Source: Nostoc sp. DedSLP01 | GTDB lineage: Bacteria; Cyanobacteriota; Cyanobacteriia; Cyanobacteriales; Nostocaceae | Direction of reading: 5' to 3' | DNA length: 64,000 bases | Assembly (NCBI GenBank): GCA_034530875.2 | Contig: JAVRCJ020000005.1 | Span: 273,903-337,902 of the forward strand | The notes under the pieces: generated by a model | The model's input: the letters and a program-made list of their open reading frames with translations, nothing else | Database searches by the model: none | Told to the model about the DNA's origin: nothing | Part shown: piece by piece, positions 35,392 to 39,777 of the stretch | Numbering within the stretch: the stretch's first letter is position 1 | Layout of the letters: each line of letters opens with the position of its first letter | Made by a program: the position numbers and the translations under genes

Positions 35392-36483
35392 ATGTATTCA
35401 AATAATCAAGGTAGTTTACAAAATTTTGGCCAACAGAATCGCCCGCGCTTAGCGCTGACAGTGGGAGATCCTGCGGGAATTGGGCCAGAGGTGATTTTAA
35501 AAGCTTTAACAGATGCGGAAATAAATCAAAAATACGAGGTTACTGTGGTAGGTAACCGAGATTTATTGACAAAGACTTATCACACGCTAAATTTAAGTCA
35601 AAATTTAGCACCTTTAGTAAATCCAGATCTGTTGTCAGTAATTGATGTGCCGCTGAAGGAAGAAATTAAAGCTCAAATTGTCTCAGGAGAAGGTAATGCA
35701 GCTAGCGGTGCGGCTAGTTTTGCTTATATGGAATATGCGATCGCTCAAACACTGGCTGGTAAGTTTGATGCTATCGTCACCGGGCCGATCGCTAAATCTG
35801 CTTGGAAAGCCGCAGGGTATAATTATCCAGGGCAAACGGAACTGCTAGCACAAATGTCTGGTGTCAAGCGCTTTGGTATGTTATTCGTAGCGCGATCGCC
35901 TCATACTCATTGGACGCTCCGAGCTTTACTTGCTACCACACATATTCCTTTATGTCAAGTGCCTGAGATATTGACACCGCAGTTGTTGACAGAGAAACTG
36001 GATTTGCTGGTGGAGTGCTTAAAGCAAGACTTTGGCATAGAGAAAGCGAGAATTGCGATCGCTGGTTTAAATCCCCATAGTGGCGAACAGGGACAATTAG
36101 GACGTGAGGAAGCAGATTGGTTAATTCCTTGGTTAGAGCAAGAGCGCCAAAACAGGCCACAATTGCAATTAGACGGGCCGATACCGCCAGATACGATGTG
36201 GGTTAAACCCGGTCAAGCTTGGTATGGAAATTCTCAGATTCAAAATCCGGCTGATGCTTACCTGGCACTTTACCACGACCAAGGCTTAATTCCTGTGAAA
36301 TTGATGGCGTTTGATAGAGCAGTTAATACTTCTATCGGTCTTCCTTTTGTACGCACTTCACCAGATCATGGAACAGCATTTGATATTGCAGGTAACGGAA
36401 TTGCTGATGCTACGAGTATGAAAGCAGCGATAGATTTAGCGGCTGAGTTAGTTAGTCAAAGGTTGGGGACGGGTCGTGGTTAA
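35392..36483 (+). CDS. pdxA: 4-hydroxythreonine-4-phosphate dehydrogenase
   Basis: [56 protein letters not shown]. Confidence 0.96.
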
Positions 36484-36522
36484 AAGCTATTTGTCGCAAT
36501 ACTTACTAGGAGTAATCCTTAC

Positions 36523-36753
36523 TTGAATTTTGAAATTATCGGAGACATCACCAATATTGAAACAATTGCTGTTAGTAACTCCATTCGTGAACTTGAACGC
36601 TTGCGTAAAACTTATGGTTCAGGAAGGTGGCGGAAACTTAAAGGTTTTGCAACCATTAGCTTAGACGACGAAAGCATTTATGAAGCTGAGTTACACTGGT
36701 ATGAAGCCCACGGAATTGGTAAGAAAGAAATTAAAATAAAACGCTTTCTATAG
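36523..36753 (+). CDS. Small basic hypothetical protein (putative toxin of a two-gene module)
   Basis: TTG start with AGGAG RBS, 76 aa, RWRKLKG...ELHWYEAHGIG. 8 bp from the next gene. Confidence 0.75.
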   Translation: MNFEIIGDITNIETIAVSNSIRELERLRKTYGSGRWRKLKGFATISLDDESIYEAELHWYEAHGIGKKEIKIKRFL

Positions 36754-36761
36754 GAGTCGTT

Positions 36762-36995
36762 ATGCAGTCAGCGAACACAGAAACTCAATATGTTGTTTGC
36801 ATTAGCAACAAAGATTATCCTGCTTCTTTAGAAATTCGGAAAATTTACCAGACTGTTCCTGATTCTGATGCTGGTAAGCACCGAATGATTAGAGTGATTG
36901 ATGAATCAGGTGAAGACTATTTATACCCTAGCAATTATTTCGTATTGATTGAATTACCAAAAGCTGTTGCAGAAGCTTTTTCCCTGGCTAGTTAA
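36762..36995 (+). CDS. Small acidic hypothetical protein (putative antitoxin/immunity protein)
   Basis: AGGAG RBS overlaps the upstream stop. 77 aa, LEIRKIY...IRVIDESGEDYLYP..YF. Confidence 0.8.
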   Translation: MQSANTETQYVVCISNKDYPASLEIRKIYQTVPDSDAGKHRMIRVIDESGEDYLYPSNYFVLIELPKAVAEAFSLAS

Positions 36996-37145
36996 AATTT
37001 AATTAAGTTATTTACTAATTTTGAGTGAAACTAATTTGCATATCACAGTATTTTAAAAGTATATGTGAAAATTCTAATTTATTACTTTAGCCCTTTGGCT
37101 TGAGCCTCGAAGCCGTTTACTAGTTTCAAGTAAAGGCAATTTATG

Positions 37146-37188
37146 AATACCAGTCATCTGTTTTTCGGGCGACTGGTATTTATTTTTT
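37146..37188 (+). terminator. Intrinsic terminator-like hairpin
   Basis: AATACCAGTC-N15-GACTGGTATT followed by TATTTTTT. Confidence 0.7.
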
Positions 37189-37439
37189 GTGTTTTTTGAT
37201 TTAGAGAAAGAATAGGCTAACGCCTAAAAAAAAAGAAAAAATAAAGAGTTTTACTCCAATAGTTGTGGTGTCAATACGTCTTTAAATATTTTTCTTAAAC
37301 ACTTCGTGTTGTAGCGAAAATTGAACCGACTAACACCTTAGAAATGTGAGGAAATCTAGTTTTTTCGTGGTTGAGTCGATAGGACTTCCTTTTTTTGTTC
37401 ATTTTGGGTTGAAGAGTTTTTGATTTTTAGGAGTTAATT

Positions 37440-37919
37440 ATGAATTTCAATAACATTGAAGACTTTGGTTGCGATCTTCAAAGTCTTCATGACTGGTGTA
37501 ATCATCAATTTAGCATGAAGTCAATGGCTTCTAGTGAGATTACTTTTGGTCGAACTCACAAATGGTTTGGATACGAGGTAATACTAGTACACCCTGCGGT
37601 AATTAAGAAAGGACATTGGGATGAGATGGTTAATCGACTTGGCGATCGCATTCTTCCAGGATGGAATTGTGCCTTACTCTGCCATTATCGTCCAGGCGGC
37701 GGCATGATAGAACATCGTGACCATTCCGTTTTTGAACCTCTGGTAGCATTAGTCAATATTGGAAGTGCTAATTTCCGCATTGATAATCACGAATATCACC
37801 TTACAGATGGTCAGGTTATCAAGTTTAATTCTAATATTCTCCATGAACTACTTCCGGTTGCATCTGACCGCTGGTCTTTGTCTTTTCGCCGGATTAAGCC
37901 ACAGTCTCTACAGTTCTGA
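37440..37919 (+). CDS. AlkB-like 2OG-Fe(II) dioxygenase
   Basis: HY..GG...HRD (HxD), distal LHE, R.SLSFR. AGGAG RBS. Confidence 0.8.
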   Translation: MNFNNIEDFGCDLQSLHDWCNHQFSMKSMASSEITFGRTHKWFGYEVILVHPAVIKKGHWDEMVNRLGDRILPGWNCALLCHYRPGGGMIEHRDHSVFEPLVALVNIGSANFRIDNHEYHLTDGQVIKFNSNILHELLPVASDRWSLSFRRIKPQSLQF

Positions 37920-37957
37920 ATTTATGTAATCCTTTTGATGTAAGGATTATGGGGCTG

Positions 37958-38962
37958 TTATTGTATCGCTGATGTCACTCTATAATTAAATCTTTGTAAC
38001 TTGCGCTCCCATCTAAAAAACAAACTTTCCCCGTTCACCTCATCTGTCTTTTCACTTTCATTAATGAGGTCTTGGTTTTTCTCCTCTAATTCGCGCATAT
38101 ACTGCCTGAGTATACCCCCAACAGCGATCGCTCTGGTTTTATGTAGCTGACGGGTTAACTCTAAAAACCATTCTCTATCACCTACCAAATCTGACTCTTT
38201 CACTTGATACTTGAGAATTTCTGGAATAAGTATTGAGGGATTATGATGTTTAGCGATCGCGCTAATATGAATAACTGGCTGGTAATCAATCCGTAAACAC
38301 TGCTGCCATAACGCTACCCATTTGGTATGAGATAAATAACCATGACTGAAATACGAAGGCGGTACCATCGCCAAAATATGTAAATGCGGATGTGCCGATA
38401 TTCCATTTTTAGCTTTAGTCACTTCTATGGACTTCACCCAACCTTTTGCAGGCCATACTTTTAATTCAGTCAATCGCTTAAAAGCTTTATTTATCGAATC
38501 TAAGTTTTCCCTAAGTTCCTCAATTTGGCAATTCTTTATAGTCAAGGTGACAAACAGCCAACGGTACTTGGGGTAGTCAGTAACAACCTGTGGGAGAATT
38601 TTGTAAGCCTTTGCTTTCCACATCAGCGATCGCCGCCACTGACAAACTGGACAGTGACGAACTCTACAAAATTGGGCATCTGATAGTTTTAAGCTGAGAA
38701 TACCTTCCGATTTTTCTGGCACTAATTGAAACTCCAGCAACTCGGAACATGTTTTCACTCGGCAAGCATACTGCTGAAAGCAATGTTCATCTGCTTTGGC
38801 GTAATACTGGAAGACTTTATCAGCATTGGCTCGGTGCTTGTCCCAAGTTTTACCTATAGGCGCAACATTACTTAAGCTAAGTACATTTTGATTAGGTTGG
38901 GACTTATCTTGAGAGGATATATTAAAAGTTATAAACTTACAGTCTGAGGCTTTCGCGGACAC
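37958..38962 (-). CDS. rep: Rolling-circle replication initiator (Rep_1, pC194/pUB110/pKYM type)
   Basis: FCRVRHCPVCQWRRS Zn motif, FVTLT (motif I), EVT..HPHLHIL (HUH), EILKYQVKE (catalytic Tyr), GGIL. Confidence 0.93.
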   Translation of the reverse strand: MSAKASDCKFITFNISSQDKSQPNQNVLSLSNVAPIGKTWDKHRANADKVFQYYAKADEHCFQQYACRVKTCSELLEFQLVPEKSEGILSLKLSDAQFCRVRHCPVCQWRRSLMWKAKAYKILPQVVTDYPKYRWLFVTLTIKNCQIEELRENLDSINKAFKRLTELKVWPAKGWVKSIEVTKAKNGISAHPHLHILAMVPPSYFSHGYLSHTKWVALWQQCLRIDYQPVIHISAIAKHHNPSILIPEILKYQVKESDLVGDREWFLELTRQLHKTRAIAVGGILRQYMRELEEKNQDLINESEKTDEVNGESLFFRWERKLQRFNYRVTSAIQ

Positions 38963-39084
38963 AAAATCACCGAGTCAGTTTGGTATTAACGTCCTAACTT
39001 AACTCAATTTATACATTCAAGCCTCAATATAAATATTTAGTTAATTCAGTTTTCACGCTCAGGTTTTGAGCGATTCCGACGAGT

Positions 39085-39777
39085 CTAAGTAAAACGTTGA
39101 GGCTCTAGAATTAAATCTACAGCAGCGCTCAAGTCTTTAACGATTAAGTCGGGATGGTAAAGTTCTAATTGGGTACGATCGCGAATCCCAGATTCCACAG
39201 CGATCGCTTTAACACCGTAGTTTTTTGCAGCTGTAATATCTGCTTCTGTATCTCCGACCATCCAGGTATCGGCGGCGGGAGGTAGTTCTTCTAATGCCCT
39301 TTTCATTAATAAGGGTTTATCTTCGATGTCACGAGTTTTAACGTAGTCGTTACTCAGGCAATAACAACGATTTTCAGGAAAAAATTTGCCTAAATCATGC
39401 TTTTTGAAGGCATAATCTAGTTCCCGGACTCGGCGCATGGTCATAACTGCTAAATCAATGCCAGCTTGTTGAATTTTTAACAGTGCATCCACAGCACCAG
39501 GCGCAAGCGCGTCATAGTCGAAGTAAGGTTCTGTATGTACTGTTTTTCGCCGCAGCTGTGCAAATTCTTGTGCTTGCGCTTCATCTAAGCCAGAATTTAA
39601 GGCAATTTGTTTTTCGGGAACGCGCTTGCGCTTGAATTCCCAAAACTCTGCTTTGGGAAGTTCTCGTACATCTTGGCCTGGGCGACGGGTTTTTTCTAAG
39701 CAAAATTTATAAACTTGATAGTAGCGTTCGGAAACATCGATAATCGGGCCGTCAAAGTCAGTAATTAGTCTTAGCAT
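39085..39777 (-). CDS. HAD family hydrolase
   Basis: DFDGPIID motif I, VMT, KP, MVGDTEADI. Confidence 0.9.
   Translation of the reverse strand: MLRLITDFDGPIIDVSERYYQVYKFCLEKTRRPGQDVRELPKAEFWEFKRKRVPEKQIALNSGLDEAQAQEFAQLRRKTVHTEPYFDYDALAPGAVDALLKIQQAGIDLAVMTMRRVRELDYAFKKHDLGKFFPENRCYCLSNDYVKTRDIEDKPLLMKRALEELPPAADTWMVGDTEADITAAKNYGVKAIAVESGIRDRTQLELYHPDLIVKDLSAAVDLILEPQRFT

Follow-up and report, generated by a model that had tools for sequence, protein, structure and literature searches.

A chromosomal Rep_1 initiator gene with a plasmid-type nick motif behind an exchangeable passenger gene in Nostoc and related cyanobacteria

The window analyzed here is a 64,000-nucleotide stretch of Nostoc sp. 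DedSLP01 (contig JAVRCJ020000005.1, positions 273,903 to 337,902), and our subject is a 2-kb unit within it (37107..39044, minus strand) built around rep, a gene for a Rep_1 initiator of the pC194/pUB110 rolling-circle plasmid type. Read along the rep strand, the unit consists of the rep leader, rep, a passenger slot, hairpins, and a plasmid-type nick motif with a further motif on its 3' side. Exactly this span recurs at a second Nostoc locus (L160 and L167), where it was inserted into an empty site. The protein is a member of a known family, Rep_1, in a chromosomal clade whose nick motif has moved behind a swappable passenger gene. Comparison across genomes established the anatomy of the unit, vertical descent of rep under purifying selection, passengers that are mosaic and never occur together, decay at many loci, and one relocation. 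A plasmid rep gene that integrates is usually lost or disrupted before long. Here, one has passed down through an order with the active-site residues intact and, in many cases, the cut site as well. The reading that we favor, with somewhat less than even confidence, is that of a resident Rep-nick unit in which an occasional nick stimulates recombination and complete units survive by decay and re-supply among relatives.

Rep and its inheritance

Rep is encoded by an uninterrupted open reading frame (ORF) at 37958..38962 (minus strand, 334 aa) and matches Pfam Rep_1 (PF01446) at an E value of 3e-82, with 276 bits against a cut-off of 33. E180, the HPHxH motif (HPHLH, residues 191-195), E248-x3-Y252, and the four cysteines of a putative site were invariant in 74 of 74 intact Rep homologues. 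The catalytic residues of pC194-type Reps are an HUH motif with Tyr214, Glu210, and Glu142 (PMC5703833), to which the residues of the window's Rep appear to correspond by motif match. A sequence-only reading of the window had described an intact, uninterrupted Rep_1 HUH initiator and proposed a plasmid origin for it. The first point was confirmed and the second was supported. The protein is 45-60% identical to cyanobacterial plasmid Reps. Rolling-circle plasmids do occur in cyanobacteria (PMC6066503).

Among 389 genomes of the family, 107 matched rep at E<=1e-100, three of which hold a plasmid-type Rep only. Two chromosomal-type copies were found in G411 alone; the remaining genomes have a single copy. 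For a wider set of loci, the best 80 of 139 relatives and further loci were combined into 83 nonduplicate chromosomal-clade loci with at least 61% identity, a set biased to intact genes. In this set, rep was intact at 67 loci, broken at 13, and at a contig edge at 3, in records of Nostoc, Tolypothrix, Scytonema, Fischerella, Anabaena, Trichormus, Stigonema, and Coleofasciculus; 40 of the 83 loci are linked to pdxA. A quick maximum-likelihood tree was built from 74 intact proteins. In it, the 67 chromosomal-clade Reps formed one clade separate from the 7 plasmid-type Reps (Shimodaira-Hasegawa-like approximate likelihood ratio test, 99) and clustered largely by host genus. No description of the chromosomal clade was found in the literature searched, subscription journals lying mostly outside that search.

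Selection on rep was compared with that on pdxA at 29 pdxA-linked loci with an intact rep, among which kin pairs are not independent. The median ratio of nonsynonymous to synonymous divergence (dN/dS) was 0.17 for rep and 0.145 for pdxA, and the synonymous divergence (dS) of the two genes was strongly correlated (rho, 0.89). Within Nostoc, the rep-pdxA correlation of dS was 0.65, against 0.76 for pdxA and ycf39. These values point to vertical inheritance of rep under purifying selection comparable to that on pdxA. Loss is frequent in an unselected sample of the genus. Sixty genomes and the window were taken, the stretch after pdxA was obtained for 56, and of the 57 loci scored, the window included, 14 carried an intact rep, 16 a broken one, and 27 none; one locus scored as intact (G051) shows a stop elsewhere, and two scored as absent run into a contig edge.

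The locus is part of the chromosome. One 6.6-kb contig covers 35322-41000 at chromosome depth in each of three DNA runs, possibly from the source sample. This contig and the recurrence of the pdxA-rep linkage in 40 of 83 loci ruled out an assembly chimera with a free plasmid, the outcome that would have undone the sequence-only reading. Neither a circle joint nor extra depth was seen at the locus in the contigs of these three runs, from which rare forms drop out. Identity with a rolling-circle plasmid was rejected on the chromosomal contig of flat depth and the missing upstream origin; a pC194-type nick sequence is present.

Chromosomal and plasmid-type Reps also meet within genomes. Exclusion of plasmids by the chromosomal Rep was considered and not supported, since in three of six cases a plasmid-type Rep match at E<=1e-100 came from a genome that also has a near-full chromosomal rep. 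The second chromosomal-type rep of one genome (L212:5060-7951) clusters with Anabaena/Dolichospermum copies, a placement that suggests horizontal transfer; the ORF beside it has a start that we take to resemble a relaxase. Plasmid-type reps with the origin still upstream are present in two other chromosomes (L145, L146, and L147), one of which has two copies, and appear to be more recent integrations.

The moved nick site and the passenger slot

In free cyanobacterial Rep_1 plasmids (L082-L084, small contigs), the sequence CCTTYACTTGAA followed by the hairpin GGGATAAC...GTTATCCC lies 110-150 nt upstream of rep. This plasmid site and the pC194 nick have CTTG^A in common (pC194 site from PMC5037232). 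Upstream of rep in the chromosomal unit, a plasmid-type nick and a complete binding hairpin were not found. Instead, the window carries the same 12-mer as the free plasmids, CCTTTACTTGAA, on the rep strand at 37125..37136, about 850 nt downstream of rep and beyond one convergent passenger gene. The cut would fall between 37127 and 37126. The 12-mer has five exact copies in the 8.57-Mb genome, and by a strict pattern it was found downstream of rep in 37 of the 83 loci and in 30 of the 61 intact reps with room to look.

The 3' flank of the nick carries a conserved motif that is unique in the genome. This motif, at 37107..37124 (minus strand; AAATA..TTCGA), is possibly a new Rep-binding site and differs from the 3' half of the plasmid sites. 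A matrix built from 36 other copies gave 39 bits for the window, 15 for the next best site in the genome, and negative scores for the plasmid sites; neither a second matrix site nor an orphan nick site was found in the genome. On the 5' side lies a hairpin (37147..37179, minus strand) with conserved structure and variable sequence, which alternatively could be a plus-strand terminator. In 26 copies picked for carrying the 12-mer, it folded at z < -2 in 20, while RNAalifold on a MAFFT alignment gave no pairs for a consensus fold. A small terminator-like hairpin with a T tail, AGGCGTTAGCCT, follows at 37213..37226 (minus strand), and its core recurs in plasmid L083, on the 5' side of the nick. 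Conservation of the nick, its 3' motif, and the hairpin on its 5' side extends across genera.

The leader suggests how the nick came to lie behind the passenger. The conserved leader/promoter of about 85 nt (38963..39047, minus strand) aligns with the post-nick leader of the plasmids and is an eroded homologue of their stretch from origin hairpin to start codon, without the nick. Four basal chromosomal copies retain the 3' arm of the plasmid origin hairpin upstream of rep. The simplest reading is that a plasmid was opened at its nick or immediately after it. With the polarity of pC194, synthesis starting at the nick would head for pdxA and leave rep behind. Within 100 kb of the site, no nick-like stop was found, and no clear GC-skew switch was seen at the site itself. 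A word inside rep (window 38351-38362) resembles the 5' part of the plasmid nick and is fused to the rep leader in tandem fragments (L176, L185, L188, and L161); it could be a pseudo-nick or simple microhomology.

The unit shares its catalytic residues, nick 12-mer, and a homologous leader with the cyanobacterial branch of pC194/pUB110 plasmids (pCYLM02, pCRI9333.08, Planktothrix PLAM_p, and pCA2.4). It differs from them in being chromosomal and vertically inherited, in the nick downstream of rep with another 3' half, in the lost origin hairpin, and in passengers without a match on the plasmids examined.

In the window, the passenger slot holds a gene for a minimal dioxygenase, predicted to be Fe(II)/2-oxoglutarate dependent and AlkB folded (37440..37919, plus strand, 159 aa). 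Two passengers alternate in this slot. Of 75 loci, 21 have the dioxygenase, 18 have an unrelated 103-aa gene, and 36 have neither; no locus has both. The dioxygenase is thus absent from 54. Loci L160 and L165 have near-identical reps and different passengers. The 103-aa gene (L163:7997-8308, minus strand, and 17 other loci in many genera) is probably the older passenger; its product had no family, plasmid, or clear fold match (best Z, 5.4).

Close homologues of the dioxygenase occur in 35 of the 389 family genomes. Of the 34 besides the window's own, 31 have the gene next to rep, which supports the tight linkage of the two genes. The three exceptions are a truncated rep missed by the script (G453), a locus with the leader only (G036), and a 1-kb contig (G296). 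At 30 loci with distant homologues, none of these was next to rep. None of the closest free plasmids matched the dioxygenase. Distant homologues lie on large cyanobacterial plasmids (L328-L331, L081, and L085), some fused into longer proteins, and one is in an Aphanizomenon phage. The large-plasmid homologues sit in arrays of small co-oriented genes. In three of the four such regions examined, they are near ArdA, SSB, Rad52, DnaB, or a cytosine methyltransferase, and the fourth consists almost entirely of hypothetical genes.

The assignment of the passenger to an AlkB-type dioxygenase was supported by fold matches of its structure model (pLDDT, 92). The best folds were ALKBH5 (Z, 16.2), OsALKBH1 (15.9), ALKBH6 (15.8), and Escherichia coli AlkB (15.4), the first prolyl hydroxylase following at 14.1; ALKBH5 superposed on 152 aligned residues with a root mean square deviation of 2.7 (Z, 16.2). 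The top six VIA matches and nearly all Foldseek matches listed are of the AlkB family. An HxD...H triad with a C-terminal R-x5-R is the AlkB-family motif. The motif noted earlier was confirmed at H92-x-D94, H135, R144, and R150: in 22 close homologues, H92, H135, R144, and R150 are invariant and D94 is nearly so, while in 47 distant homologues R150 falls outside the conserved columns. Together with the predicted AlkB-type fold, the triad, the R-x5-R end, and an R...W lid motif place the protein near E. coli AlkB and ALKBH5/6/8. Unlike members of that family, it has only 159 aa, 15-18% identity, fast mosaic evolution, and no match to Pfam PF13532, to which 8 of 47 relatives matched weakly (best E, 5e-4).

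The most likely activity of the enzyme is oxidation or demethylation of a base, with single-stranded nucleic acid as the substrate; Rep would not need it. RNA is as possible a substrate as DNA, because a 47-sequence profile matched ALKBH8 better (E, 7e-5) than E. coli AlkB (0.02). The idea of a dedicated enzyme repairing the element's own single-stranded DNA was not sustained, the gene being one of two interchangeable passengers and the host having two canonical AlkB-family genes elsewhere. One of these (G000:C97:1140-1667) sits on a 4.7-kb contig, possibly mobile DNA. Within Nostoc, the synonymous divergence of the dioxygenase is 0.59 of that of pdxA and uncorrelated with it (rho, -0.13); its dS also lies below that of rep and is uncorrelated with rep. 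The ratio of nonsynonymous to synonymous polymorphism (pN/pS) is 0.81 for the whole gene and 1.13 over the first 60 codons, the N-terminal lid region. The alleles are mosaic across Nostoc and under either diversifying or relaxed selection, but the ligands of the metal and of 2-oxoglutarate have been retained. The gene defines an AlkB-like family of small, rapidly evolving proteins with ties to mobile DNA.

Recombination around the nick and its possible causes

Synonymous divergence relative to pdxA is 1.11 for the regulator gene usually found upstream of rep, 0.92, 1.00, 0.85, and 0.76 for the four quarters of rep, 0.59 for the dioxygenase, 0.28-0.72 for the small gene pairs beyond the nick, 0.79 for the 3' quarter of pdxA, and 1.05 for ycf39. 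Divergence thus appears to dip around the nick and to recover in the 5' part of rep and in pdxA. Between the window and L159, the dS of rep is 0.09, against 0.30-0.35 for pdxA and ycf39, and this rep allele looks recently exchanged. Past the nick, the exchangeable pairs comprise a RelE/ParE-type toxin-antitoxin, an aspartic-protease pair, and the window's pair.

Comparison of loci documents a single move of the 2-kb unit to a previously empty site. The span 37107-39044 recurs at the second Nostoc site in L160, L165, and L167 and is decayed in L162, G427, and G041. The site is empty in G456 and G462, and when filled it has an imperfect duplication of about 43 bp ending in HIP1. The pdxA locus has been vacated in the genomes with the filled site. 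G447 and G438 have the regulator and pdxA together without rep, and G438 retains a leader stub. Elsewhere, tandem rep fragments joined to the leader lie upstream of rep, and the flank order is permuted in two pairs (L140/L219 and L230/L206). These fit circles or duplications and also local rearrangement.

We propose the following course for the resident Rep-nick unit. A small cyanobacterial plasmid of the pC194 type would have been opened at the nick or immediately past it and become fixed in the chromosome of an early filamentous cyanobacterium, beside pdxA in many lineages, giving the order leader, rep, passenger, hairpin, and nick. We infer that Rep still nicks the downstream site now and then. 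As there is no second nick site, no routine circle would form from the single one. The nick or a broken fork would be repaired by homologous recombination, and repair would make the spot prone to exchange of passengers, to deletions and tandem duplications, and now and again to relocation. Decay and re-supply among close relatives would let complete units persist, and the AlkB-fold gene would be a later passenger from a plasmid pool of DNA-processing genes. The spot may therefore be a gene-swapping hotspot, and a named enzyme with a single 12-base target is offered for two open matters, the DnaA-less start of replication in Nostocales and gene swapping at hotspots free of integrases.

The nearest working analogy may be the double-strand origin (DSO)-gene-single-strand origin (SSO) element of staphylococcal pC194-family plasmids (qacC and lnuA; PMC5037232), in which a nick-adjacent passenger likewise spreads independently of rep and is less diverged. 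Unlike that element, the present unit is chromosomal, exchange goes past the nick, the alleles are mosaic and not near-identical, and no SSO was identified; the stretch 37195-37440, checked for one, folds little better than shuffles.

Several points weigh against a nick-driven hotspot. No nicking, circle, or single strand was observed in the contigs examined. By the strict pattern, 31 of the 61 intact reps lack the downstream 12-mer, and Nostoc reps without the motif are no less constrained than those with it (dN/dS, 0.15 versus 0.18), which suggests that Rep may be kept for another task, unless the motif losses are recent. The low synonymous polymorphism of short genes may have other causes, kin pairs again not being independent. 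Since exchange is not confined to the rep-nick slot but reaches past it, ordinary recombination between flanking homologies can explain the swaps. Because the relocation ends at a HIP1 site, host recombination could have performed it without Rep; in Synechococcus, integration is increased by HIP1 homology (bioRxiv 2024.09.10.611283). Most other rep locations are one-sided rearrangements.

The strongest competitor, which we nevertheless consider unlikely, is a domesticated Rep acting without the neighboring nick, in trans on small plasmids or other single-stranded DNA, with the nick a slowly decaying relic and cassette turnover as at any insertion hotspot. The intact, equally constrained reps without the motif speak for it, as do the single copy in all but one genome and the fact that within Nostoc rep is as vertical as the flanking regulator. 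Against it stand the conservation of the noncoding nick, 3' motif, and 5' hairpin across genera, the absence of a second matrix site from the genome, and the coexistence of plasmid-type and chromosomal Reps in three of six cases.

A bolder proposal, which we hold to be improbable, has a domesticated initiator with a re-evolved cut site, whose programmed chromosomal nick seeds DnaA-independent, recombination-driven replication or high-frequency-of-recombination (Hfr)-like transfer and drives exchange and diversification of neighboring genes, the AlkB-like enzyme evolving as in an arms race. More doubtful still is that Rep and the nick form an auxiliary one-way chromosomal start, either for DnaA-independent replication or as an Hfr-like transfer origin sending the small pairs and pdxA first and rep last. 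The polarity of the nick away from rep, judged from the pC194 site (PMC5037232), the lack of a nick-like stop within 100 kb, and the strongest homogenization in the genes just past the nick would agree with such a start. In addition, Nostoc PCC 7120 can replicate from multiple origins without DnaA, an integrated plasmid having become an origin in a dnaA mutant (PMC7198777), and pC194-type Reps can serve as relaxases (PMC5714925). However, the genome has dnaA, 43 of 57 Nostoc loci have no rep or a broken one, the GC skew has no clear switch at the site, and contig depth equals that of the neighbors.

An autonomous rolling-circle transposon resembling IS91/ISCR or Replitrons is very improbable. 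The origin-like site downstream of an HUH gene, the relocation with a target duplication, and the permuted flanks recall such elements, but rep is single copy in nearly all genomes and vertically inherited. IS91/ISCR enzymes are HUH proteins related to pUB110-type Reps with an origin-like end behind the gene, and they are defined by two catalytic tyrosines (PMC5714925). Here, there is one tyrosine with a glutamate (E-x3-Y), the nick polarity points out of the element, the one resolved insertion has a target duplication, which IS91/ISCR insertions lack, and the IS91 model NF033538 gave 14 bits against a cut-off of 125, so identity with IS91/ISCR was rejected. Replitrons are also HUH elements whose insertions may have a fuzzy right end and a variable target duplication, but they are eukaryotic, high copy, related to CRESS/pCRESS, and bounded by short terminal repeats (PMC10288648). 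A single-copy Rep_1 unit without a long terminal repeat is therefore not a Replitron.

Least probable of all is the integrated, excisable, autonomous mini-replicon first proposed for the window, its AlkB gene repairing its own single-stranded intermediates: the intact Rep, AlkB fold, and tight linkage suit it, but the upstream origin is incomplete, the nick is not duplicated, no circle or extra depth was seen, the passenger is replaceable or absent, and a housekeeping repair enzyme would not be expected to have a pN/pS near 1 in its N-terminal lid.

Neighboring genes and minor features

The sequence-only reading placed an island between pdxA (35392..36483, plus strand) and a HAD hydrolase gene (39085..39777, minus strand). 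Only pdxA proved to be an ancestral chromosomal neighbor, linked to rep in several genera. In most Nostoc, an OmpR-type regulator occupies the place upstream of rep. The gene 3' of HAD was compared in 20 other genomes; in 16 of them, its counterpart in the window's genome comes after that regulator, on another contig (G000, C26). The HAD junction is therefore a host rearrangement. At the other breakpoint (G000:C26:78683-81531), two paralogous OmpR-type regulator genes lie close together. The pdxA-HAD interval, suggested as a place to find the empty site, was rejected as such: the rep-less pdxA loci are deletions, and in G013, G023, G032, G036, and G054 they still carry the rep leader or first codons. 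Nor is the left end of the unit a sharp Rep-made junction, since ancestral sequence continues past it in G036; it seems mainly to mark the start of the conserved leader.

Of the roughly 440 bp of structured, AT-rich DNA described upstream of the two convergent genes, only 37095-37200 folds better than shuffles (z, -3.7); structure was not upheld for the remainder (z, -1.7 and -0.3). No integrase or transposase family was found among the window ORFs scanned and no long terminal repeat in 36300-39300, in agreement with the earlier description. A dif module is defined by arm-spacer-arm dif-like sites at both ends. An element integrating by Xer/dif (IMEX, dif module) was rejected, as only one conserved arm-like word was present, the rep leader. 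For known defense systems, PADLOC gave matches for 0 of 6 proteins, and PHROGs yielded unnamed families only.

HIP1 sites at 37642, 38124, 38253, and 38626 had been taken as a sign of long residence in cyanobacteria. The count of four stands, and residence is supported by the tree and the selection analysis; HIP1 alone is weak evidence, with 1.7 sites expected at genome density. Contigs from RNA runs of a relative cover the dioxygenase and rep and were not used, since contigs cannot show transcription.

The tiny gene pair noted upstream was confirmed at 36523..36753 and 36762..36995 (plus strand, 76 and 77 aa), outside the unit, between the nick and pdxA. The two proteins have no Pfam or NCBIfam family. 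They are 88-99% identical across Nostoc, with a synonymous polymorphism about 0.3 of that of pdxA, and the first has a 63% homologue on a Thiodictyon plasmid.

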